Shown in pieces: positions 1,045-11,521 of a DNA stretch of 64,000 bases. Source of the DNA: Acidimicrobiales bacterium (GTDB lineage: Bacteria; Actinomycetota; Acidimicrobiia; Acidimicrobiales; Bog-793). Each line of letters starts with the position of its first letter. Position 1 is the first letter of the stretch. The stretch lies in the NCBI GenBank assembly GCA_050013835.1, contig JBEKEM010000004.1:101569-165568 (forward strand), given 5' to 3'. Below the pieces are notes generated by a model that was not told the origin of the DNA, made no database searches, and saw only the letters and a program-made list of their open reading frames with translations. A program made the position numbers and the translations under genes.

Positions 1045-3098
1045 TGGCAACGACCGTCCCCGTCACCGTCGACCGCGAAGTGGAGCCCGACGACGCCCGT
1101 GACGGCCGCTCCGGGCCGATGCGGGGCCTCCACCACGCGATCGCCCCGTTGCTCGCCGCGCGCGGACTGCCGCGCTGGCTCTTCTGGACCGGTGCCGCGA
1201 TCACGGCGTTCTTCGTCGTGCTCGCCGTGTTCGCGCCCCAGATCGCGCCCTACGGCTTTAACCAGTACATGGCGCACGGCGTTCGCTTCCCCCAGCAGGG
1301 TGCGCCGTCCGCGGCCCACTGGATGGGCACGACCGTCGTCTCCGAGGACGTGTTCTCCCGGGTCATCTTCGGCGCGCGCACCTCGATCGAGGTCGTCGTG
1401 CTGGCCCTCGCGTTGAGTGTCGCCATCGGCGTGCCGATGGGTCTCATCTCCGGCTACTTCGGGGGTTGGCTCGACCGGGCACTCGTCCTATTCAACGACT
1501 CGATCTTCGCCTTCCCCTACCTGCTCCTCGCCATCGTCATCGCCTTCCTCCTCCAGAACTCGGTCGGTGGGGGGGTGTTCACCGCGGCGATCGCCATCAC
1601 CGTCGTGTACATCCCCCAGTACTTCCGCGTCGTGCGCAACAGCACGCTGTCGGTGCGCGAGGAGTCGTACGTCGAGGCGGGGCGCGCCCTCGGGGCCAAG
1701 CCGCGCACGGTCATCCGCCGGTACGTGTTCGCCAACGTCATCCAGTCCGTCCCCGTCGTCGCCTCGCTCAACGCCGCCGACGCCATCCTCACGCTCGCCG
1801 GGCTCTCGTTCCTCGGCATCGGCATGGACCCGTCGGTCGCGGCCGAATGGGGCTACGACATCTCACGGGGCATCTCGGACGCCCAGGCCGGCTTCTGGTG
1901 GACGGGGCTGTTCCCGGGGATCGCGATCATCCTCCTCGTCACCGGCCTCACCCTCGTTGGCGAGGGGCTGAACGACAGCTACAACCCGCTGCTGCGCCGG
2001 CCGAACCACCGCTCCTACGCCCTGCCCGGCGGTCAGCGGAAGGCGACCACCACCACCACCACCACCGCCGCCGCGACGCAACCCGTCATCCGGGTACGGG
2101 ACCTGCGCGTCTGGTACGGGACCGACCGCGGCCCCGTACGCGCCGTCGACGGCGTGAGCTTCGAGATCGGCGAGCGTGAGACGCTCGGACTCGTCGGCGA
2201 ATCGGGGTGCGGCAAGTCGACGCTCGGGCGGGGGCTCCTCGGGCTGCTGCCCGTCGGCGCGACCCGCGACGGGGTGGTCGAGTTCGGGGGACGCAACCTC
2301 GTCACGGCGTCGCCGGCTGAGATGCGCAAGCTGCGCGGCCCTGCGATCGGGCTCGTCTTCCAGGAGCCGATGACGCGGCTCGACCCGCTGATGCGGATCT
2401 CGGACCACTTCGCCGAGGCGCTGCGCACCCACGACCCGGACATCTCCGACGCCGAGGTGCGCCGGCGTTCGCTCGAGGCACTCGGCGGGGTTGGCATCCC
2501 GCCGACGCGCTTCCGCAACTACCCCTACGAGTTCTCGGGCGGTATGCGGCAGCGGATCATGATCGCGCTCGCGCTCGTCTTCCGCCCGCGCTTCGTCGTC
2601 GCCGACGAGCCGACGACGGCCCTCGACGTGCTCGTCGAGGCGCAGATCCTGTCGCTCATCGCCGATCTCAAACGGAACTTCGACGCGTCGCTGCTCCTCA
2701 TCACCCACAACCTCGGCATCGTCGCCGAGTCCTGCGACCGCGTCGCCGTGATGTACGCCGGCCGAATCGTTGAGCAGGGCGCCGTCGAGGACATCTTCAG
2801 CCGCCCGGAGCACCCCTACACGCAGGAGCTCATGCGTTCCACGATCTCGCTTTCGACCCGCGAGCTCCACTTCATCCCCGGGGCGCCGCCCGACCTCGTC
2901 GAACCGCCAGCGGGATGCCGCTTCCACCCGCGCTGCCCCGCGGCGATGCGGGTCTGCGCCGCCGCCGCCCCCATCGGCACGGAGGTGCGGCCGGGCCACC
3001 TCGCGGAGTGCTGGCTGCACGGCCCGGCCGACCACCTGACACCCGACGACCGGGTGCCGCTCGAGCGGGAGGAGATCGGCATTGCCGACGAAGCCTGA
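1044..3098 (+). CDS. Fused ABC transporter permease (DppC/OppC type) and ATP-binding subunit (DppD/OppD type)
   Basis: The N-terminal ~330 aa form a membrane permease. A poly-Thr linker (ATTTTTTTAAAT) follows. The C-terminal half is an NBD with Walker A GESGCGKST, signature FSGGMRQR and Walker B FVVADEPTTALD, plus the oligopeptide C-terminal Cys motif (GCRFHPRCP). Confidence 0.85.
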   Translation: MATTVPVTVDREVEPDDARDGRSGPMRGLHHAIAPLLAARGLPRWLFWTGAAITAFFVVLAVFAPQIAPYGFNQYMAHGVRFPQQGAPSAAHWMGTTVVSEDVFSRVIFGARTSIEVVVLALALSVAIGVPMGLISGYFGGWLDRALVLFNDSIFAFPYLLLAIVIAFLLQNSVGGGVFTAAIAITVVYIPQYFRVVRNSTLSVREESYVEAGRALGAKPRTVIRRYVFANVIQSVPVVASLNAADAILTLAGLSFLGIGMDPSVAAEWGYDISRGISDAQAGFWWTGLFPGIAIILLVTGLTLVGEGLNDSYNPLLRRPNHRSYALPGGQRKATTTTTTTAAATQPVIRVRDLRVWYGTDRGPVRAVDGVSFEIGERETLGLVGESGCGKSTLGRGLLGLLPVGATRDGVVEFGGRNLVTASPAEMRKLRGPAIGLVFQEPMTRLDPLMRISDHFAEALRTHDPDISDAEVRRRSLEALGGVGIPPTRFRNYPYEFSGGMRQRIMIALALVFRPRFVVADEPTTALDVLVEAQILSLIADLKRNFDASLLLITHNLGIVAESCDRVAVMYAGRIVEQGAVEDIFSRPEHPYTQELMRSTISLSTRELHFIPGAPPDLVEPPAGCRFHPRCPAAMRVCAAAAPIGTEVRPGHLAECWLHGPADHLTPDDRVPLEREEIGIADEA

Positions 3099-4389
3099 CC
3101 TCTCGACAGCCCCGGTGCTTCTCGACGTGCGCGGCGTGAAGGTCCACTTCGCGCTGCGCGGCAACTTCCTCCAGCGGGTGCTGGGCCACGACACCGGGTC
3201 GGTGAAGGCCGTCGACGGCGTGAGCTTCCAGCTGCACCGCGGCGAGGTGCTCGGGCTCGTCGGTGAGTCCGGCAGCGGCAAGACGACGATCTCGCGGGCG
3301 GTGCTGTCCCTCGTGCACGTCACCGACGGCTCGATCTCGCTCGACGGCGAGAGGATCTCCGGTCTCTCGGAACGGCGCTTCCGGCCGCTGCGCAAGCGGA
3401 TGCAGCTCATCTTCCAGGACCCGCACGCCTCGCTCAACCCGGCGATGACCATCCGCGACGCCGTCGGCCACCCCCTCAAGATCCACGGCATCGCCCGTGA
3501 CGACCGCCAGGTGACGAGGCTCGTCTCGGAGACGCTCGAACGCGTCGGGCTCGTGCCCGTCGACCGCTTCCTGCGCAAGTACCCGAGCGACCTCTCGGGC
3601 GGCCAGAAACAGCGCGCCGTCCTCGCCCGGGCGATCATCCTCGGACCGGAGCTCGTCATCGCCGATGAGCCGGTCTCGATGCTCGACATGAGCGTGCGGG
3701 CCAAGGTCCTCCAGCTCATGGACGACCTGAAGACCGACCTCGGCCTCACGTACCTCTACGTGACCCACGACCTCGCGACGGCGCGCTACTTCTGCGACCG
3801 GATCGCCATCATGTACCTCGGCCGGATCGTCGAGATCGGCTCCGCCGCCGACGTCTACGCCAACCCGCGTCACCCGTACACGAAGGCGCTCCTGGAGGCG
3901 ATCCCGGAACCGGATCCCCGTCACCACGTGCCACGCGACCTTCCCCGCGGCGAGGTGCCCGACGCGGCAGTCCCGCCGCTCGGCTGCTCGTTCCACCCCC
4001 GCTGCCCGCGCGCCTACGCCCCGTGCGGGTGGGAGAGCCGTGACCTGCGGACGCTGCTCGAGGAACGGTGGGCGCAACTCGGCCCGGAGGAGTTCCAGCG
4101 CGAGCGGGCGATCATCGGCGGCCTCGACGGGCTCGATGAGCCGTCTGCCCTCGCCCTGCTCCCCTGCGCCTCCGGCCGCAGCCCCGCCGAGGTCGCGGCC
4201 CTACTCCAAGAACACCGTGCGGCGAGCGCGGAGGACCCGTTCTGGAGAGGCGTGGTCGCGACCGAGGAGCGCGCCGCCGGCGTCGCCGTCCGCTTCCACG
4301 AGGGCGTCGACCCCGTGCTCGGTCCGGTCGGCGACGACACCCCGCCGGTCGAGGTCGCCTGCCATCTCTACCGTCCGGACCTCGGCTAG
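3082..4389 (+). CDS. ABC transporter ATP-binding protein (DppF/OppF type) with ~110-aa C-terminal extension
   Basis: Walker A GESGSGKTT, signature LSGGQKQR, Walker B LVIADEPVSMLD and GCSFHPRCP are present. A non-homologous tail follows. The TTG start at 3082 overlaps the upstream stop. Confidence 0.85.
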   Translation: MPTKPDLSTAPVLLDVRGVKVHFALRGNFLQRVLGHDTGSVKAVDGVSFQLHRGEVLGLVGESGSGKTTISRAVLSLVHVTDGSISLDGERISGLSERRFRPLRKRMQLIFQDPHASLNPAMTIRDAVGHPLKIHGIARDDRQVTRLVSETLERVGLVPVDRFLRKYPSDLSGGQKQRAVLARAIILGPELVIADEPVSMLDMSVRAKVLQLMDDLKTDLGLTYLYVTHDLATARYFCDRIAIMYLGRIVEIGSAADVYANPRHPYTKALLEAIPEPDPRHHVPRDLPRGEVPDAAVPPLGCSFHPRCPRAYAPCGWESRDLRTLLEERWAQLGPEEFQRERAIIGGLDGLDEPSALALLPCASGRSPAEVAALLQEHRAASAEDPFWRGVVATEERAAGVAVRFHEGVDPVLGPVGDDTPPVEVACHLYRPDLG

Positions 4390-4525
4390 GTCGGCGCCCG
4401 CGCCCTCGGGCGATGCCGGGCGCAAATCGTCCCGACGGTCCGCGACTCAGCTCGGGGAGACGGCCCGACCACCGGCCGGCAACTGGGCTCCCTGGCGTGA
4501 CGAGGACCGGTTTACCGAGACACGT

Positions 4526-5524
4526 TCACGAGCCGACTGCGAGGATCTGTGCCGCCACCAGACGGAGGCAGTCCGCCGTCGAGTGGGCCGACGCTTCGGC
4601 GCCGAACAGCTCGGACAGCACGACGACCGGTGCCGGGGAGAGGCCGACGGCGTCGCGCTCGGCCTGGCCGGCGACGACGACGACCGGCACGTGACGGAGC
4701 TCCGCCTCGGCGAGCACGCCACCGACCACCTTGCCCTCGAACGAGGTGCGATCGAGACGGCCCTCGGCGGTGACGACGAGATCCGCCGCGGCGACGCGGC
4801 TGGCGAGCCCGACGTGGCGGGCCACGAACTCGAAGCCGGGCTCGATGCGGGCCCCGGCGGCCCACAGGCCGCCCGCCAGACCTCCGGCCGCCCCGGCTCG
4901 GGGGACGAGTCCGACGTCGACCGAGAAACGCTCCCGCAGCAACTCAGCCTGGGCGGCGAGACGCCGCTCGAGGCGGGCAACGGTGTCGGAGTCGGCCCCC
5001 TTCTGGGGACCGAACACGCGGGCCGCGTCAAGGTAGCCCGTCGTCACGTCCGTCGCGAGCACGACGCGACAGCCGGCCGCGAACGGGACGAGGTCGGCGA
5101 GCGCCTCGAGGGCGCCGGCGCCCCCGTCCGTCGTGACCGACCCGCCCAGTCCCACGCTCACGTGGCTCGCCCCGGCGCGCAGTGCCTCGGCGACCAGCGC
5201 GCCGAGGCCGTAGGTCGTCGCCGCTTCGGCCTGCCCGGGTCCGGGCGCCGCACACCCCCCGTAGCCGATCACGATCGCCGACTCGATGACCGCCCGGCCC
5301 CTGCGCAGCCGCCACGGTGCCACGACGGGCACGCCAAACGCGTTCGGCACCTCGCTCGTGCGGTTCGGACCTCCCAGCGCGTCGAGGAATCCCTCACCGC
5401 CGTCGGACAGGGGTAGGAGTATCGTCTGCGCCCCGGCCGCGTCGAGGCCCTCAGCGAGGGCACGGGCCGCGTCCCGGGCACTGAGCGTGCCGCGCAGCTT
5501 GTCGGGCGCGACGAGAACGTGCAC
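4526..5524 (-). CDS. Glycerate kinase
   Basis: The 332-aa ORF starts MHVLVAPDKLRGTLSARDAARALAEGL and shows the Gly-rich GlxK/GarK-family pattern throughout. Confidence 0.8.
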   Translation of the reverse strand: MHVLVAPDKLRGTLSARDAARALAEGLDAAGAQTILLPLSDGGEGFLDALGGPNRTSEVPNAFGVPVVAPWRLRRGRAVIESAIVIGYGGCAAPGPGQAEAATTYGLGALVAEALRAGASHVSVGLGGSVTTDGGAGALEALADLVPFAAGCRVVLATDVTTGYLDAARVFGPQKGADSDTVARLERRLAAQAELLRERFSVDVGLVPRAGAAGGLAGGLWAAGARIEPGFEFVARHVGLASRVAAADLVVTAEGRLDRTSFEGKVVGGVLAEAELRHVPVVVVAGQAERDAVGLSPAPVVVLSELFGAEASAHSTADCLRLVAAQILAVGS

Positions 5525-5528
5525 CTCC

Positions 5529-6443
5529 TCAGCTCCCGCCGAGTGCCGCCGCCACGCCGTTCGTCGCCATGAGCGCGATGCGTCGCCTCGTCGCGAGCGT
5601 CGCGCTTCCGATGTGCGGGAGGAGCACCGCGTGCGGCGCGTGCAACAGTGCCGCCGGAACCCGCGGCTCTTCCGAGTAGACGTCGATACCGGCCGCGAAG
5701 ATCCGCCCGCCCTCGAGCGCGTCGGCGAGCGCGTCCTCGTCGATGACGGCGCCCCGGGCCGTGTTCACGATGACCGAGTCCGGACGGAGCAGCGCCAGCT
5801 CGCGCGCTCCGATCAGGTGACGGGTCAATTCGGTGAGGGGCACGTGCAGACTCACGATGTCGCTGCGGACGAGCAGGTCGTCGAGATCCACCACGTAGCC
5901 AGGCTCCCCGGTGTCGCGGTGCGACCAGTGCAGGACGGTCATGTCGAACCCGGCGGCTCGTCGCGCCACGGCACGAGCGATCCGCCCGAACCCCACCAGG
6001 CCGAGCGTCGCGCCGCAGACGTCGCGGCCGAGGTGGTCGAGGAGGCTCCAACCGCGCCAGTCGCCTGATCGAAGGTCGCGCTCGGCGTCAGGCGTCCGGC
6101 GACTCGCCGCGAGGATCAGGGCGAAGGCGAGATCCGCGGTCGTCTCGTCGAGGGCACCCGGCGTGTTGAGCACCTGCACGCCCGCCGCATGTGCCGCGGC
6201 CAGGTCGATGTTGTCGAGCCCGACCGCGACGTTGCCGATCACCCGCAGACGTGGGGCCGCTGAGATCACCTCGGCATCGATGCGATCAGTCAGGACGCAG
6301 ACCACTGCATCGACGTCGGCGACGGCGTGGACGAGCTCGGCGTGACTGTAGGGCGCATCAACAGCCCGGACCCTGACTTCGTGAGCGGCGAGCGGATCGA
6401 GTGCTCCATCGGGCAGATGCCGTGTCACCAGCACAGTCGCCAT
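5529..6443 (-). CDS. D-2-hydroxyacid dehydrogenase (glyoxylate/hydroxypyruvate reductase-like)
   Basis: The 304-aa ORF has an NAD-binding GLVGFGRIARAVARR motif and the catalytic-domain pattern of D-isomer-specific 2-hydroxyacid dehydrogenases. It lies 4 nt upstream of the glycerate kinase gene. Confidence 0.85.
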   Translation of the reverse strand: MATVLVTRHLPDGALDPLAAHEVRVRAVDAPYSHAELVHAVADVDAVVCVLTDRIDAEVISAAPRLRVIGNVAVGLDNIDLAAAHAAGVQVLNTPGALDETTADLAFALILAASRRTPDAERDLRSGDWRGWSLLDHLGRDVCGATLGLVGFGRIARAVARRAAGFDMTVLHWSHRDTGEPGYVVDLDDLLVRSDIVSLHVPLTELTRHLIGARELALLRPDSVIVNTARGAVIDEDALADALEGGRIFAAGIDVYSEEPRVPAALLHAPHAVLLPHIGSATLATRRRIALMATNGVAAALGGS

Positions 6444-6729
6444 AACTCCGAGCTCCTTGACGGGTCATCGAGAGCAGGACCCAGCTTCGCACGTTGGAGT
6501 GCCAAGACCGGTGGCGAACCAGTCGCCTGCCGTCGCTGCCGTTCGAGGGGGGCGGTCGTCTTCGGCAACGATCTCTCCGGCCCGATGATTCAAATGAACG
6601 CGTGGAACCGACGCGATTTTGCCAGTTGCACTAGCATGGACCGACGGAATACAGCAGCGACGGGCGGCGGCTCATTGCAGCATGCTGCTTGCTAAAGTCC
6701 TGGTCAAGTCCCCTAATTAGGAGCCTGAA

Positions 6730-7797
6730 ATGACTGTCCGGCGTTTGTTCTACGTTTTCATACTGGCACTGCTCGGTACTGCATGGCTTCCCCTGGCGAG
6801 CGCCCAGGCGACGACGGGTAGCGGTACCTCGACGCCGCCTGTGATCGCCGTGCGTGTTGCCAACAGCGTGCTCGCCAAGGAGGGCAGCCTGAATGCGGCG
6901 TGGGTGACCCCGGAGTTCAGCGGCACTACTTACGCGGCTGCCGTGGCGAGTGACCCCACGAATGGTTTCCTCGGCGCGTATATCGACGGCTCTGGAAACG
7001 TGTGGGCCAAGGAAGGCAGCCTGACGGCTCCGTGGGTGGAGGAATGGAACGCATCGACTTCAGGGGTCGAGGCCGATCAAGTGGCCGTGGCCAGTGATTC
7101 CACGAATGGTCCCCTCATCGCTGTGGTGGACCACAATGGCAACCTGTGGGTCAAGGAAGGCAGCCTGACGGCTCCGTGGGTCGAGGAATGGAACGAATCG
7201 ATTGCAGGGGTCTTGGCCGAAACAGGTTCCAATGAACTGGCCGTCGCGAGCGATCCCACGAATGGTCCCCTCATTGCTTTTGTGGACAACTCTCATGACG
7301 TGTGGGCCAAGGAAGGCAGCTTGACCGCGGCGTGGACCGAGGTATGGAACGAATCGACTACAGGGGTCGACGCCGATCAAGTGGCCGTCGCGAGCGATTC
7401 CACGAATGGTCCCCTGATCGCTGTGGTGGACGAAGATTCCTATCTGTGGGCCAAAGAAGGCAGCCTGACTGCGCCGTGGCACGACGAGTACAACAACGCC
7501 AACTACGTGGCAGTCGCGAGTGACCCCACGAATGGCCCTCTCATCGCCGTGCAGGATGAAAGTAGTTACAACCTGTACGCGAAGGAAGGCAGCGTCACCG
7601 CGGTGTGGTACGACGAATACAACAATGTCTTCAACGGTAACTATCGATTCTCCGTCGCGAGTGACCCCACGAATGGTGCCCTCATCGCAGTGGTGGACTC
7701 GAGTCGCATCGTGTGGGCCAAGGAAGGCCTGCTAGCACCGACGTGGACAGACGAATACAACGGCACCGCCGGTACCACGGTTGCCGTTGCCGGTTAA
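6730..7797 (+). CDS. Secreted repeat protein, predicted 7-bladed beta-propeller, function unknown
   Basis: An AGGAG SD lies 6 nt before the ATG. The signal peptide is MTVRRLFYVFILALLGTAWLPLASAQA. Seven tandem ~42-50 aa repeats follow (VAVASDxTNGPLIAxVD...WAKEGSLTAPW..E.N). A strong terminator hairpin lies downstream. Confidence 0.85.
   Translation: MTVRRLFYVFILALLGTAWLPLASAQATTGSGTSTPPVIAVRVANSVLAKEGSLNAAWVTPEFSGTTYAAAVASDPTNGFLGAYIDGSGNVWAKEGSLTAPWVEEWNASTSGVEADQVAVASDSTNGPLIAVVDHNGNLWVKEGSLTAPWVEEWNESIAGVLAETGSNELAVASDPTNGPLIAFVDNSHDVWAKEGSLTAAWTEVWNESTTGVDADQVAVASDSTNGPLIAVVDEDSYLWAKEGSLTAPWHDEYNNANYVAVASDPTNGPLIAVQDESSYNLYAKEGSVTAVWYDEYNNVFNGNYRFSVASDPTNGALIAVVDSSRIVWAKEGLLAPTWTDEYNGTAGTTVAVAG
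6943..7794 (+). repeat. Intragenic tandem repeats (about 126-150 bp units, with a 300-bp two-unit periodicity)
   Basis: 7081-7131 and 7381-7431 differ at 4 of 51 nt. The VASD.TNG.LIA and AKEGSLTA.W blocks recur seven times. Confidence 0.85.
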
Positions 7798-7839
7798 CCT
7801 AATTTCGCAAACGCGACCAACCTAATTCCACAAGCGCCA

Positions 7840-7883
7840 GCGCCAACCGAGAATCAGGTCTCCTGATTCTCGGTTGGCGCTTT
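7840..7883 (+). terminator. Rho-independent terminator of the repeat-protein gene
   Basis: A perfect 19-bp stem (gcgccaaccgagaatcagg / cctgattctcggttggcgc) with a 3-nt loop is followed by ttt. Confidence 0.8.
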
Positions 7884-8264
7884 ACTCCGACAACGAATTT
7901 GATTCCTCGCACCAAACGCCAGCCACCCGGTCATCGGGCTGGTTGTCGAGACGTGTAGGGAGAACGTCGCTCAAATCCGTGTTCCCGCGGCAAGCAGCCG
8001 CCGCGGAACTTCCGCTTGCTTGGGCACCGACTTACTTGGGTCACGCCTGGGCCACGCCTGAACGACCCAAGGTACTCGGCTGGGGTCGTCGCCCAGCCTG
8101 CGCCATCCTCGATGTGTTACCGGTGATCGTCAAAGGCTCAGACTTCTGTGACGCCTGCCTGCGGCTCCAAATCGACGAGGAACGAAGCATTCGGCCTGTA
8201 GGTGCGCTGTGCTTGCCTTCCGCGCTGCGACCTAGGTGCTCAACCCCACCTCAGAGGCACTTTG

Positions 8265-8337
8265 CTGGCGGGGGAGGACTCGAACCTCCAACCTCCTGAT
8301 CCAAAGTCAGGCGTTCTGCCTCTTGAACTACCCGCCA
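8265..8337 (-). tRNA. tRNA-Gln (anticodon UUG)
   Basis: A manual cloverleaf fits: acceptor TGGCGGG/CCCGCCA with U1-A72 and G73, D stem GTTC/GAAC, anticodon stem CCTGA/TCAGG with loop CTTTGGA, and T arm GGAGG-TTCGAGT-CCTCC. The tRNA is 73 nt and CCA is not encoded. Confidence 0.9.
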
Positions 8338-8616
8338 CCGAGTCAAGACCTCTACGACCTTCTCGTCAGCTCGCGGTACCACGGACTCGCAGGTCGAAAC
8401 GACTCAAGCCTCGCGCAGGTAGGCCCCGACGCGCGCGATCTCGAGATCCTGGCACAACTTCACGTCCCTACAAGACGAGCAACGACCAGTGTCGCTAAGA
8501 CGCGGCCTCACCGAACAATCGAAAACCGCTGATTTGTGCCATCCTCGCGATGGAAATCACCGATATTCTTCAGTGGAGATGGACGTGTTCCGGTTTCTCG
8601 CTGAGAATCGCGAGCG

Positions 8617-10383
8617 ATGAAACGACTTGGGTCTGTAACGATCGCCGTTTGCACGCTGATCGGTGCCTCACTGTACGGTGGAGTCTCGCTGATGAACAGC
8701 GCATTGGCGCGAACCATGCCCGTCGGTACCTTTCGCGTCTTCCCGTTGGGTTTGGTCGTTTCCACGGGACATTCGCCGCCTTTGACCGCAGAGAATCCTG
8801 GACCGGCGAGCGCGGGGCGTCGCATAGTCACCGTCCTACCCGACCTGCGCCCAACTCCTTCAGCCAAGTCCTCGGCGAGTGGCAAGCCGTCTCTGTCATC
8901 CGTCAAGAGTTCCGCCTCGGCCTTGCCCAGCTCGGGTGGAATTGCCCGACCTATGGCGAGGGTAAGCAATGCAACCATCTGCACGTTTTCTTCGTTCAGA
9001 TGGCAAGGAACTCCCTTCAAGAGAACCGTAAACTGCACAGGTACCAACCGGCGGGTCGAGATCTCCGTGTTCGTTCCGGCGAATACGCGAAGCACACCCT
9101 TCACTGCTGAGGTTCGCATCACGGCGAGCAATCGCTTTGGAATCAGCACAGCGATCTGGCATGTCGTCGTGAAGGCACGACACCGTCGGCCCACACCGAC
9201 GACGACAACGCCGCCAGCTACAACCACCACGCCGCCGACCACGACCACGACAACGCCACCGACCACGACAACGCCACCGACCACGACAACGCCGCCGACC
9301 ACGACAACGCCACCGACCACGACAACGCCGCCGACCACGACAACGCCACCGACCACGACCTCGACATCGCCGACCACAACGACGACCACGACGACCACAA
9401 CGACGACCACGACGTCTACGACGACTACGACGCTGGCGCCTGCTGCACCCGTCATTACAGAACAACCAACGAACCAAACAGTTCCTGCGGGCGATTCCGC
9501 GAGCTTCACGGCCTGGGCGTCGGGCACTCCGACCCCCAGTATCCAGTGGAAGTACTCATCCAACGGCGGCACAAGCTGGGCGTATGCCTCCGGCGCCTCC
9601 TCGACCTCGCGGACCTACTCGTTCACGGCGTCGAGCGCGGAGAACAGCTACGAGTACGAAGCGGTGTTCACGAACACCGGCGGATCCGCAACGACCAACC
9701 CCGCGACGCTGACAGTCACGAACCGCAACTCCTACAACTGGTCCGGCTACGTGGACACAGGCCCGACAGGCACCTTTGCCTCGGTCAATGGTGACTGGAC
9801 GGTACCGACTCTGACATGCAATTCAGGCAAGAACGCCTACGCCTCGGCGTGGATCGGGATCGACGGCTACGGGAGCAGCACGGTCGAGCAGGACGGCATC
9901 GAAGCGGACTGCAACACGAACAACGTGGCTTCGTATTACGCCTGGTATGAGATGTACGGGGACAACAACATCAACAGCGGCAACGAGGTCCAACTTCCCG
10001 CCGGGCACCCGGTATCCCCTGGGGATGCGATGTCGGCGTCCATCAGCGTCGTTGCCAACGTATGGACCCTCGAGATCTCAGACTCGACGCAGGGGTGGCA
10101 CTACACGAGGTCTCCGGCAATCACGTTCTCGGCGGCACAGGAATCAGCGGAATGGATCGTCGAAAGACCCGAGGTGAATGGCAACACAGCGGTCCCGCTC
10201 GCCGACTTCGGGTCGGTGGCCTTCACAAATGCGACGGTGAACGGGACCACCGATTCCATCTCTGCGTTCACCGCGTTGTCCATCGAAATGGTCGATAGCG
10301 GTTCGGCGATTTTGGCCGCGCCCGGACCGCTCAGCTCCTCGGGCGAGAACTTCACGGACAATTGGGAAGCTCTCGGTCCTTAG
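8617..10383 (+). CDS. Secreted multidomain protein with C-terminal G1 (eqolisin) glutamic peptidase domain
   Basis: The signal peptide is MKRLGSVTIAVCTLIGASLYGGVSLMNSALA. A Thr/Pro linker and an Ig-like segment (PVITEQPTNQTVPAGDSASFTAWASGTPTPSIQWKY) follow. The C-terminal domain carries the G1 motifs NWSGY, WIGIDG, VEQDG, YYAWYEMY and SAEWIVERP. Confidence 0.8.
   Translation: MKRLGSVTIAVCTLIGASLYGGVSLMNSALARTMPVGTFRVFPLGLVVSTGHSPPLTAENPGPASAGRRIVTVLPDLRPTPSAKSSASGKPSLSSVKSSASALPSSGGIARPMARVSNATICTFSSFRWQGTPFKRTVNCTGTNRRVEISVFVPANTRSTPFTAEVRITASNRFGISTAIWHVVVKARHRRPTPTTTTPPATTTTPPTTTTTTPPTTTTPPTTTTPPTTTTPPTTTTPPTTTTPPTTTSTSPTTTTTTTTTTTTTTSTTTTTLAPAAPVITEQPTNQTVPAGDSASFTAWASGTPTPSIQWKYSSNGGTSWAYASGASSTSRTYSFTASSAENSYEYEAVFTNTGGSATTNPATLTVTNRNSYNWSGYVDTGPTGTFASVNGDWTVPTLTCNSGKNAYASAWIGIDGYGSSTVEQDGIEADCNTNNVASYYAWYEMYGDNNINSGNEVQLPAGHPVSPGDAMSASISVVANVWTLEISDSTQGWHYTRSPAITFSAAQESAEWIVERPEVNGNTAVPLADFGSVAFTNATVNGTTDSISAFTALSIEMVDSGSAILAAPGPLSSSGENFTDNWEALGP
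9256..9363 (+). repeat. Six tandem 18-bp units (cc[ag]ccgaccacgacaacg) encoding PPTTTT
   Basis: The units are read directly at 9256, 9274, 9292, 9310, 9328 and 9346. They sit inside a wider Thr/Pro low-complexity tract at about 9196-9432. Confidence 0.9.
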
Positions 10384-10542
10384 ATCCCGCGTTCGCAGGT
10401 GTGTCGGCTCCAACCTTCGGACGATTCGGTGTCGCGCCACAAACCGCACCCGGGCGGCGCGGACCACCCAGCGCCCCTCGCTCAGGTCCGGCTGCCCGCC
10501 GTGAATTCCGATCGGATTCCATCAGCTATCGTCTGCGAAGCC

Positions 10543-10638
10543 ATGGGATCGCTGATCAAGAAGCGCCGCAAGCGCATGCGCAAGAAGAAGCACAAGAAGA
10601 TGCTGAAGCGCACGCGTTGGCAGCGCCGCTCGAAGTAG
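10543..10638 (+). CDS. 30S ribosomal protein bS22 (actinobacterial mini-protein)
   Basis: The 31-aa product MGSLIKKRRKRMRKKKHKKMLKRTRWQRRSK matches the remembered mycobacterial bS22 pattern (MGSVIKKRRKRM.KKKH.K.LK.TR.QRR.K). It is the internal ATG of track ORF 10399..10638. Confidence 0.85.
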   Translation: MGSLIKKRRKRMRKKKHKKMLKRTRWQRRSK

Positions 10639-10705
10639 GCCTACTCACCCGTTCACGGGGACGAGCGCTCCCGATCCGAGCGATTTGCTAGGGATCGGCA
10701 CGCGC

Positions 10706-11521
10706 TCACGTGACGGCGCGCGTGGCCGCGACGAGAGCTGACAGCTTCGTCGACTCGACCCTCCTTCGGATCTCGCTGGCGACGGCCGGCGCTTCCGGCG
10801 GCTCACACTCGACGAACCAGGTCGACCCGCTCCCGGCCAGAGACGGCTGCAATCCGGACGCCTCCGCGAGGAGCTCCCGGTAGTGCGCGAGCCGCGGCTC
10901 GACGACGATTGCCGCTCTTTCCAGGTCGTTCGTCGCGGATCCCGGCGCCGGGGCGCCGACCTCGTCGAACGCCGCGTAGACCGCAGCAGTCGACACGCCG
11001 AATGAAGGTGTGACGATGACAAAGGCCTGGTCAGCGGGTGCCAGGGCTTCGACGATCTCGCCGACACCGCGCACCTTCGCGCGACCGCCTCGCAGACAGA
11101 AGGGCACGTCAGCGCCGAGACGCGCCGCGAGCGCGAGATCCTTGACTCCCGCCCAGCGGAGCACGGCCGCGGCGTCGGCCGATCCTCCGCCGAGACCTGC
11201 TCCGGGCGGGATCCTCTTCACGAGCCGGATGTGTGCCCGCCGACCAACGAGATCGAGGGCCCGGACGACCAGGTTCTCGCTGACCGGCACGTCCGAGAGC
11301 ACCGGGACTTCGACTCCGGAACCCACCCAGCGGACGGCGTCGACGACCTCGAGACCGTCGCCAGCGCTGAATTCGAGCTCGTCGGCGAGGTCGAGTGCGA
11401 CCATCTCCGCTTCGATGAGGTGGTACCCGTCGTCACGTCGCCCGACGATGCGGAACGTTCGGGTCAGCTTGGCGGGGGCGAGCCTGCGATCGACCTTCGG
11501 CACGCTGCCAGCTTGCCCCAA
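10706..11521 (-). CDS. ispE: 4-diphosphocytidyl-2-C-methyl-D-erythritol kinase
   Basis: The sequence shows APAKLTRTFRIVGRRDDGYH and the GHMP kinase motif PPGAGLGGGSADAAA. The annotated start overlaps the rsmA 3' end by 58 nt, so the true start may be a downstream GTG. Confidence 0.85.
   Translation of the reverse strand: MGQAGSVPKVDRRLAPAKLTRTFRIVGRRDDGYHLIEAEMVALDLADELEFSAGDGLEVVDAVRWVGSGVEVPVLSDVPVSENLVVRALDLVGRRAHIRLVKRIPPGAGLGGGSADAAAVLRWAGVKDLALAARLGADVPFCLRGGRAKVRGVGEIVEALAPADQAFVIVTPSFGVSTAAVYAAFDEVGAPAPGSATNDLERAAIVVEPRLAHYRELLAEASGLQPSLAGSGSTWFVECEPPEAPAVASEIRRRVESTKLSALVAATRAVT

Follow-up and report, generated by a model that had tools for sequence, protein, structure and literature searches.

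A probable Sec-secreted, immunoglobulin-fused G1 (eqolisin) glutamic peptidase at a tRNA-Gln locus of an Acidimicrobiales bacterium

The locus studied here raises the question of which enzyme, if any, is encoded by a long gene of an Acidimicrobiales bacterium whose product ends in motifs of the G1 (eqolisin) glutamic peptidases, and of what the modules in front of these motifs contribute. The gene lies in a stretch of 64,000 nucleotides (assembly GCA_050013835.1, contig JBEKEM010000004.1, positions 101,569 to 165,568), called the window below. The best explanation overall, which we hold with good confidence, is that its product is a modular acid endopeptidase of MEROPS family G1, secreted through the Sec pathway. 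A preliminary description of the window had proposed the open reading frame (ORF) and its motifs, and all are found in the translation: NWSGY at amino acids (aa) 374–378, WIGIDG at 412–417, VEQDG at 423–427, YYAWYEMY at 440–447 and SAEWIVERP at 510–518. The gene and the residues on which the assignment depends are the following; SGP and AGP are the scytalidoglutamic and aspergilloglutamic peptidases.

8617–10383, plus strand: complete coding sequence of the multidomain G1 glutamic peptidase, predicted to be secreted; 588 aa and a stop codon, ATG start, the sole long frame on this strand here.
9721–10380, plus strand: G1 (eqolisin, Peptidase_A4) catalytic domain, aa 369–588 (Pfam PF01828, E = 7.7e-34).
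9862–9864, plus strand: Asp416, aligned with SGP Asp43 and AGP Asp123 (Asp14 of the heavy chain); invariant in 15 family members.
9889–9891, plus strand: putative catalytic Gln425, aligned with SGP Gln53 and AGP Gln133 (Gln24 of the heavy chain); invariant in the 37- and 15-sequence alignments (A1 and A2).
10162–10164, plus strand: putative catalytic Glu516, the second Glu of AEWIVE, aligned with SGP Glu136 and AGP Glu219 (Glu110 of the heavy chain); invariant in A2.

Concerning the family assignment, the Peptidase_A4 profile matches aa 374–562 with 117.4 bits, above the curated gathering cut-off of 22.3, and the match covers profile positions 2–188 of 206. In a phmmer search of the PDB the first match is the AGP heavy chain (E = 4.5e-12), with Gln425 on Gln24 and Glu516 on Glu110. 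A profile built from 15 family members has three PDB matches only, the AGP heavy chain (3e-24), SGP (8.1e-21) and the AGP light chain (1.1e-6), and its alignment places Asp416, Gln425 and Glu516 on SGP Asp43, Gln53 and Glu136; the Gln/Glu dyad that had been proposed from the motifs is thus in register with both fungal enzymes. In SGP, Gln53 and Glu136 are the catalytic dyad (PMC3009609, PMC6154417) and Asp43 is important for function (PMC6154417). In the trimmed alignment of the 15 catalytic domains (A2), Asp416, Gln425, Glu512 and Glu516 are invariant.

The AlphaFold2 model has a predicted local distance difference test score (pLDDT) above 90 across most of aa 271–588 and of about 76–98 over the G1 domain, and it contains the two-sheet antiparallel beta-sandwich with a substrate cleft by which G1 peptidases are recognised. 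Foldseek comparison of the model with the PDB returns SGP structures as the top three matches (2ifw_A, 2ifr_A and 1s2b; E = 4.6e-11 to 1.9e-9, template modelling (TM) score 0.78–0.82), followed only by Ig-domain proteins; the closest fold is that of SGP and not that of a lectin, the alternative considered in the preliminary description. The domain is strongly acidic (24 Asp and Glu against 4 Lys and Arg), and its isoelectric point (pI) is 4.05, against about 12 for the N-terminal 159 residues. The ratio of nonsynonymous to synonymous substitution rates (dN/dS) in the catalytic domain is 0.22–0.35, and selection on the domain is purifying. The identification of the C-terminal domain as a G1 glutamic peptidase with a Gln/Glu dyad is solid, as far as sequence, profile and predicted fold can carry it, and the G1 assignment of the preliminary description stands.

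By homology with SGP and AGP, Glu516 would be the general acid/base that activates the water molecule, Gln425 would polarise the scissile carbonyl and stabilise the tetrahedral intermediate, and Asp416 would have a structural role; the C-terminal 220 residues would form the two-sheet beta-sandwich that carries them. SGP (PDB 1S2B/2IFW) and AGP (PDB 1Y43) are the fungal founders of the family. They resemble the window protein in the fold, the dyad, the structural Asp and the acidic character of the catalytic domain, and have the motifs NW.G, W.GIDG,.Q.G, AWYE and AEWIVE in common with it. However, the identity to SGP structures in Foldseek is just 21–24%, the propeptide of the fungal enzymes is short and basic, they lack Ig, linker and stalk modules, and the window protein has a cysteine pair of its own (C401 and C432).

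Among bacteria, a G1 peptidase was first characterised in Alicyclobacillus sp. DSM 15716, namely pepG1 (Jensen et al. 2010, PMC3009609). It is secreted, has its optimum at pH 3–4 and is insensitive to pepstatin, and the mature enzyme begins about eight residues before NWxGY (PMC3009609). Compared by description, both proteins are bacterial and have a signal peptide, a Peptidase_A4/G1 domain that starts just before NWxGY and the conserved Gln/Glu dyad. By analogy, the window enzyme is expected to be acid-active and pepstatin-insensitive like pepG1. The two differ in that pepG1, from a thermoacidophilic Firmicute, consists of a signal peptide, a short N-terminal segment that is removed and the catalytic domain only, whereas the Acidimicrobiales protein has 588 aa and four extra N-terminal modules. 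Together with the signal peptide these are as follows.

8617–8709, plus strand: predicted Sec signal peptide, aa 1–31 (MKR n-region, hydrophobic core at aa 4–25, ALA-RT cleavage motif; hydropathy scan and inspection).
8710–8952, plus strand: basic Ser/Pro/Ala-rich segment predicted to be disordered, aa 32–112 (pLDDT 25–35).
8953–9186, plus strand: small beta domain with two cysteines (C122 and C140), aa 113–190 (four predicted strands, pLDDT 53–62).
9187–9432, plus strand: Thr/Pro linker, aa 191–272 (82 aa; 71% Thr, 23% Pro; pLDDT below 50).
9433–9720, plus strand: immunoglobulin (Ig) I-set domain, aa 273–368 (Pfam I-set E = 1e-7 and Ig_3 E = 8.6e-8 at aa 278–367; pLDDT 90–97).

The order sketched in the preliminary description (signal peptide, region of about 160 aa, Thr/Pro linker of about 80 aa, Ig-like module) is recovered as a signal-like N-terminus, 159 aa, 82 aa and an I-set/Ig_3 domain. 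The same architecture, at the same tRNA-Gln locus, is found in the orthologues of two related loci, L001 and L002. Both likewise start at MKRL, and their cleavage motif reads ASA-RT. Judged from hydropathy and inspection, aa 1–31 are a predicted Sec-type signal; the N-terminus contains no twin-arginine motif and no canonical lipobox (the sequence IAVC is not canonical). The basic segment consists of 19% Ser and 15% Pro and has 9 Lys and Arg against 2 Asp and Glu. The N-terminal region is 85–88% identical to that of the two orthologues and the Ig domain 79–87%. The sequence and fold matches of the Ig domain in the PDB are Ig domains, including those of phage tail Ig proteins. The linker is encoded by 18-nt tandem repeats of TTTTPP units (Tandem Repeats Finder arrays at 9199–9432), and its length differs by 12–18 aa among otherwise identical assemblies (proteins of 570, 576 and 588 aa) and by 16–21 aa among orthologues; the difference in copy number between assemblies may be a true slippage polymorphism or a collapse in short reads or assembly.

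The 159 residues at aa 32–190 have no Pfam match, and an NCBIfam scan of the protein gave sub-threshold noise only (GltJ and similar), no model covering it. A phmmer search with the segment aa 113–190 against 1.8 billion representatives gave nine matches. In P0057 (E = 4.6e-4, 354 aa) the two-Cys domain directly precedes a Peptidase_A4 domain, P0055 repeats a related two-Cys domain four times in tandem without any peptidase, and the N-terminus of P0001 aligns weakly with both cysteines in register. From these matches, the unknown region of the preliminary description is a disordered basic spacer followed by a small extracellular module of beta structure found repeatedly alongside G1 peptidases.

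With regard to function, extracellular scavenging of proteins or peptides at acid pH would be the most likely role, since the catalytic domain matches known acid-active G1 enzymes in its strong acidity (pI about 4) and the closest relatives come from metagenome bins labelled SPRUCE and palsa, presumably peat samples. The Ig I-set domain appears always to accompany the catalytic domain in this clade, and the Thr/Pro linker, together with the basic N-terminal region and the two-Cys domain in it, would form a lineage-variable spacer and binding 'stalk', which would probably position or retain the enzyme on a polyanionic surface or substrate. Several points weigh against this picture. The long hydrophobic core of the signal peptide could be an uncleaved anchor instead. 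The fungal G1 and pepG1 zymogens have a short propeptide directly before NWxG, where an Ig domain is found here, and activation may therefore differ. The pH optimum, the substrates and the processing are all inferred by analogy for the Ig-fused clade. The peat labels belong to the relatives, the sample accessions of the genome itself being without description. Finally, a scan of 7700–10800 with promoter and terminator consensus sequences found no promoters and one terminator-like site of sub-random quality.

The first of these points leads to the best-surviving alternative, which we think possible though rather unlikely: display on the cell envelope in place of release, in line with the surface tethering suggested in the preliminary description, with an uncleaved signal-anchor, or a basic N-terminus (pI about 12) bound to anionic wall polymers, holding a stalk of linker and Ig domain with an enzymatic tip. 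The hydrophobic core is indeed long (about 22 residues), the N-terminal 159 aa, strongly basic, contrast with an acidic catalytic end, and the stalk varies in length (ten repeats and extra Ig domains in the orthologue L003, a polymorphic number of linker repeats) as is typical of surface stalk proteins. However, the hydrophobic core is followed by a good AXA cleavage motif that is conserved, and a search of the protein with LPXTG/LAXTG sortase and lipobox patterns found none; there is no C-terminal anchor, the C-terminus being the G1 domain ending in NWEALGP. Linkers of the Pro/Thr (PT) type are equally common in freely secreted actinobacterial hydrolases.

Alternatively, the basic N-terminal region could be a tethered pro-segment or inhibitor that masks the acidic cleft at neutral pH; its release or autocatalytic cleavage in acid would yield a mature enzyme of about 23 kDa, or 33 kDa if the Ig domain is retained. 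Acid-protease zymogens offer a parallel in their basic propeptides; the two regions are complementary in charge (pI about 12 for one, about 4 for the other), and in the compact P0057 the homologous domain sits directly before the G1 domain. The precursors of AGP and SGP convert autocatalytically in acid, and mature pepG1 starts about 27 residues past its predicted signal cleavage site (PMC3009609). Yet the 82-aa linker and the Ig domain lie between this region and the catalytic domain, it is replaced by unrelated modules in L003 and is absent from most family members, and the tandem repeats without a peptidase in P0055 fit a generic extracellular module better, so that we give this proposal little credence.

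A non-catalytic, lectin-like binding module (pseudo-peptidase) that keeps the G1 fold is very improbable: the fold is a concanavalin-like beta-sandwich and MEROPS lists non-peptidase homologues in the family (PMC3009609), but Gln425, Glu516 and Asp416 do not vary within the family, the closest structures are those of the peptidases and selection is purifying.

The weakest alternative concerns the extent of the gene. In five independent ENA assemblies (L081–L085) the plus-strand ORF is unbroken and 100% identical except for 12 or 18 fewer linker residues. In these assemblies gene callers place the start of the G1 gene at the GTG codon of Val350, inside the Ig domain (9664–10383, plus strand), and call a minus-strand gene of 321–336 aa over the 5' half (8508–9572, minus strand). 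A public entry with the identical catalytic end (P0112, 239 aa) is named 'G1 family glutamic endopeptidase [Acidimicrobiales bacterium]', and the close relatives P0120, P0122, P0123 and P0185 seem to have been shortened by gene calls in the same way. In the window, an in-frame TGA at 8602–8604 closes the frame upstream, so that no longer N-terminus is possible. What the antisense frame encodes is poly-Val/Gly, without a Pfam family match. The antisense frame has codon position 3 in common with the sense frame and shows the more 'typical' pattern of guanine-plus-cytosine (GC) content, with codon position 1 above position 2. Since position 3 is common to both frames, the codon-phase substitution test is blind to sense versus antisense, and homology was used to decide; for the same reason the minus-strand frame at 8508–9572 is a shadow ORF. 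That the true gene is the 239-aa G1 domain from the GTG at 9664, with a separate minus-strand gene (8508–9572) in the 1 kb upstream, is scarcely credible: gene callers produced exactly this in the five assemblies, NCBI holds the result and the antisense ORF is also open in L001 and L002, but the start splits the Ig domain (I-set, aa 278–367, pLDDT above 90) and would deprive an enzyme of the secreted type of its signal peptide, the product of the antisense frame has the properties just described, most of the homologues listed have Ig and G1 domains in one polypeptide, and the two-Cys domain upstream has a match to a G1-linked domain that is significant library-wide. The 588-aa reading is better than the deposited 239-aa model.

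For the search for relatives of the G1 peptidase we used aa 273–588 as the query; a full-length query drowned in low-complexity Thr/Pro words and missed the closest relatives, including the identical protein. At E ≤ 1e-10 the query finds 1417 database proteins, and 406 G1 loci were confirmed in a pattern scan in which each GTDB species was represented by one genome. The best loci belong to metagenome-assembled genomes (MAGs) of Acidimicrobiales/Acidimicrobiaceae and Solirubrobacterales, and more distant ones to Ktedonobacterales, Streptosporangiaceae, Nocardioidaceae, Gaiellaceae, Dormibacterota, Micrarchaeota and Thermoplasmata. Most of the 120 relatives listed combine an I-set/Ig domain with PF01828, and several (Acidimicrobiales, Solirubrobacteraceae) carry the NCBI name 'G1 family glutamic endopeptidase'. 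The isolate names of many relatives contain SPRUCE or palsa, labels which we take to refer to studies of acidic peatland. Thus the view that bacterial members are sparse does not hold, and the protein is an ordinary further member of a known, metagenomically abundant family with hundreds of similar proteins in soil and peat Actinomycetota, already named as such; actinobacterial G1 homologues were listed in the 2010 paper on pepG1 (PMC3009609). The statement that bacterial members are essentially uncharacterised fails for bacteria as a whole, pepG1 having been characterised in 2010 (PMC3009609), and stands for the Ig-fused clade: a literature search for G1 peptidases in Acidimicrobiia or peat and for Ig-fused G1 enzymes returned nothing specific, and no biochemical study of the clade was found.

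Looking at the architecture of the relatives, P0015, P0115, P0150, P0194 and P0202 combine I-set and Peptidase_A4 domains in an Ig–G1 unit that is 45–82% identical to that of the window. The N-terminal modules of Ig–G1 relatives vary from one to at least six Ig domains, with other repeats and, in some, a Thr/Pro linker; the window version has a single Ig domain and the basic two-Cys domain. The orthologous locus L003, of another Acidimicrobiaceae MAG, encodes a G1 protein of 1509 aa (2440–6969 of that locus, plus strand) composed of two I-set domains, ten identical repeats of about 87 aa, a further Ig domain and the G1 domain. At this locus only the Ig–G1 unit is constant, and the N-terminal 'stalk' is wholly replaced in L003.

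The catalytic domain itself is not uniform. Its identity to the G1 domains of L001 and L002 is 64–72%, and the difference from L001 is concentrated in one segment.

9959–10383, plus strand: divergent recombinant 3' segment of the peptidase domain (maximum chi-square), about aa 449–588, including the short loop without Cys after Glu516.

Nucleotide identity to L001 is 90–98% up to about 9950 and 54–70% after it, and the maximum chi-square breakpoint lies at 9959, with 8% mismatches before and 30% after. The synonymous substitution rate (dS) against L001 is 0.09–0.16 upstream of aa 449 and 0.83 downstream, where dN/dS is 0.35. Against L002, dS is about 1 over the whole catalytic domain, and 0.16–0.19 for the N-terminus, ispE and rsmA. 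Correspondingly, the protein of L001 (P0185) is the nearest relative of the window protein in aa 369–448 (94%) and among the most distant in aa 449–588 (59%), where the window groups with P0117, P0120 and P0123 at 75–79%. The allele classes can also be told apart by the loop that follows the catalytic Glu: it takes the short form EVNGNTAVPLADFG in the window, as in AGP, whereas most family members, the nearest orthologues among them, have the Cys-bracketed form EVCSPSCLLTSLADFG, as in SGP; AGP and SGP thus show the same dichotomy. The jump in dS under purifying selection points to recombination with a diverged allele and not to positive selection, and recombination has made the C-terminal half of the G1 domain a mosaic, with two or more allele classes among populations that are closely related. 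Mechanistically, the 3' half of the gene would have been exchanged by homologous recombination between diverged alleles. Positive selection for the variable 3' half was rejected, dN/dS being 0.29–0.35 and dS itself raised about eight-fold, and so was a diversity-generating retroelement, as the mismatches involve all four bases and indels. P0115 is itself chimeric-looking.

A bolder reading, to us an unlikely one, would be that the tRNA-Gln-linked locus is a 'stalk-plus-protease' diversifying system, in which an Ig–G1 unit sits on a fast-changing stalk, with the two-Cys domain as anchor or pH-released inhibitor, and the substrate-facing C-terminal half is shuffled between loop classes, possibly under selection for substrate specificity or escape from inhibitors in acidic soils. 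Nothing like it is known to have been described for G1 peptidases.

Concerning the chromosomal setting of the peptidase gene, a tRNA-Gln(UUG) lies upstream on the opposite strand (8264–8337), and a tRNA-Gln also precedes the G1 gene in L001, L002 and L003. Downstream, the order of a 31-aa bS22-like ORF, ispE and rsmA is kept in L002, L003 and L004, and the IspE flanking the gene in L002 is 94% identical to that of the window. The G1 gene thus resides in a conserved chromosomal locus (tRNA-Gln, G1, bS22, ispE, rsmA). The 31-aa ORF is Lys/Arg-rich (MGSLIKKRRKRMRKKKHKKMLKRTRWQRRSK; 10543–10638, plus strand), is 97% conserved in L002–L004 between the G1 gene and ispE, and presumably corresponds to the small actinobacterial ribosomal protein bS22, which it resembles; gene callers annotate a 69-aa ORF in its place. 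An Rfam search of 7700–10800 by E-value found the tRNA-Gln alone and no RNA family for the conserved 280-nt upstream region.

The gene lies in a stretch of low GC content (6400–10600; 58–65% against 70–76%), with a GC fraction of 0.46 at codon position 1 and 0.74 at position 3, the latter being 0.81–0.88 in neighbouring genes. The low value at position 1 is due to the Thr/Ser/Asn-rich composition of the protein. A horizontally acquired island that includes the gene was rejected, since the deficit falls mostly on position 1 and the same locus is found in four related genomes.

The other side of the tRNA-Gln is variable. In the window it carries a gene of low GC content for a secreted 355-aa repeat protein (6730–7797, plus strand) with seven DNA repeats of 129–156 nt, for which there is no Pfam repeat model. 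The protein is predicted with confidence to be a beta-propeller (pLDDT 87.5, predicted TM score 0.85), and its best structural matches (TM score 0.60–0.67) are the seven-bladed PHL/PLL sugar-binding lectins of Photorhabdus. Its homologues are often joined to a CHAP, cutinase, CAP or GH3 domain and never to PF01828, which suggests a glycan- or cell-wall-binding module. A tblastn search of 80 related loci found no homologue of it. In L002 a 399-aa ORF (3582–4781, minus strand) lies there beside the tRNA-Gln (4894–4967), and L001 has ORFs at 48–2494; read by eye, the former looks like a tyrosine recombinase and the latter look transposase-like. An integration hotspot seems to lie on the propeller (3') side of the tRNA-Gln, and the functional pairing with the propeller protein across the tRNA that the preliminary description had suggested is not borne out, as none of the 80 related loci has the propeller and orthologous loci carry integrase- or transposase-like ORFs in its place. 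If the propeller gene lay on an island, an att-like copy of the tRNA-Gln 3' end in direct orientation might delimit it; a search for one in the window returned only the internal repeats of the propeller gene. About 50 nt past the propeller stop codon there is a perfect GC-rich hairpin (ccaaccgagaatcagg tctc ctgattctcggttgg, at about 7846–7882), probably the terminator of that gene; in Rfam it gave only a meaningless sub-threshold microRNA match.

The understanding of G1 peptidases is unchanged by these findings, and the shortened public annotation, the variability of the stalk and the recombination in the catalytic domain are worth knowing without making the protein a surprising one. The shadow ORF over the Thr/Pro linker leads automated annotation to cut this gene and several close relatives down to the bare catalytic domain, and the true architecture is therefore hidden in databases. 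The mosaic nature of the catalytic domain matters for any phylogeny or specificity inferred from these sequences. With this protein, a well-documented member is added to the large clade of Ig-fused bacterial G1 acid proteases, which is concentrated in MAGs of Acidimicrobiales, Solirubrobacterales and Ktedonobacterales, several of them with SPRUCE or palsa labels. If active, these enzymes could take part in turning over protein and mobilising nitrogen outside the cell at low pH, and they might yield acid-stable proteases insensitive to pepstatin.

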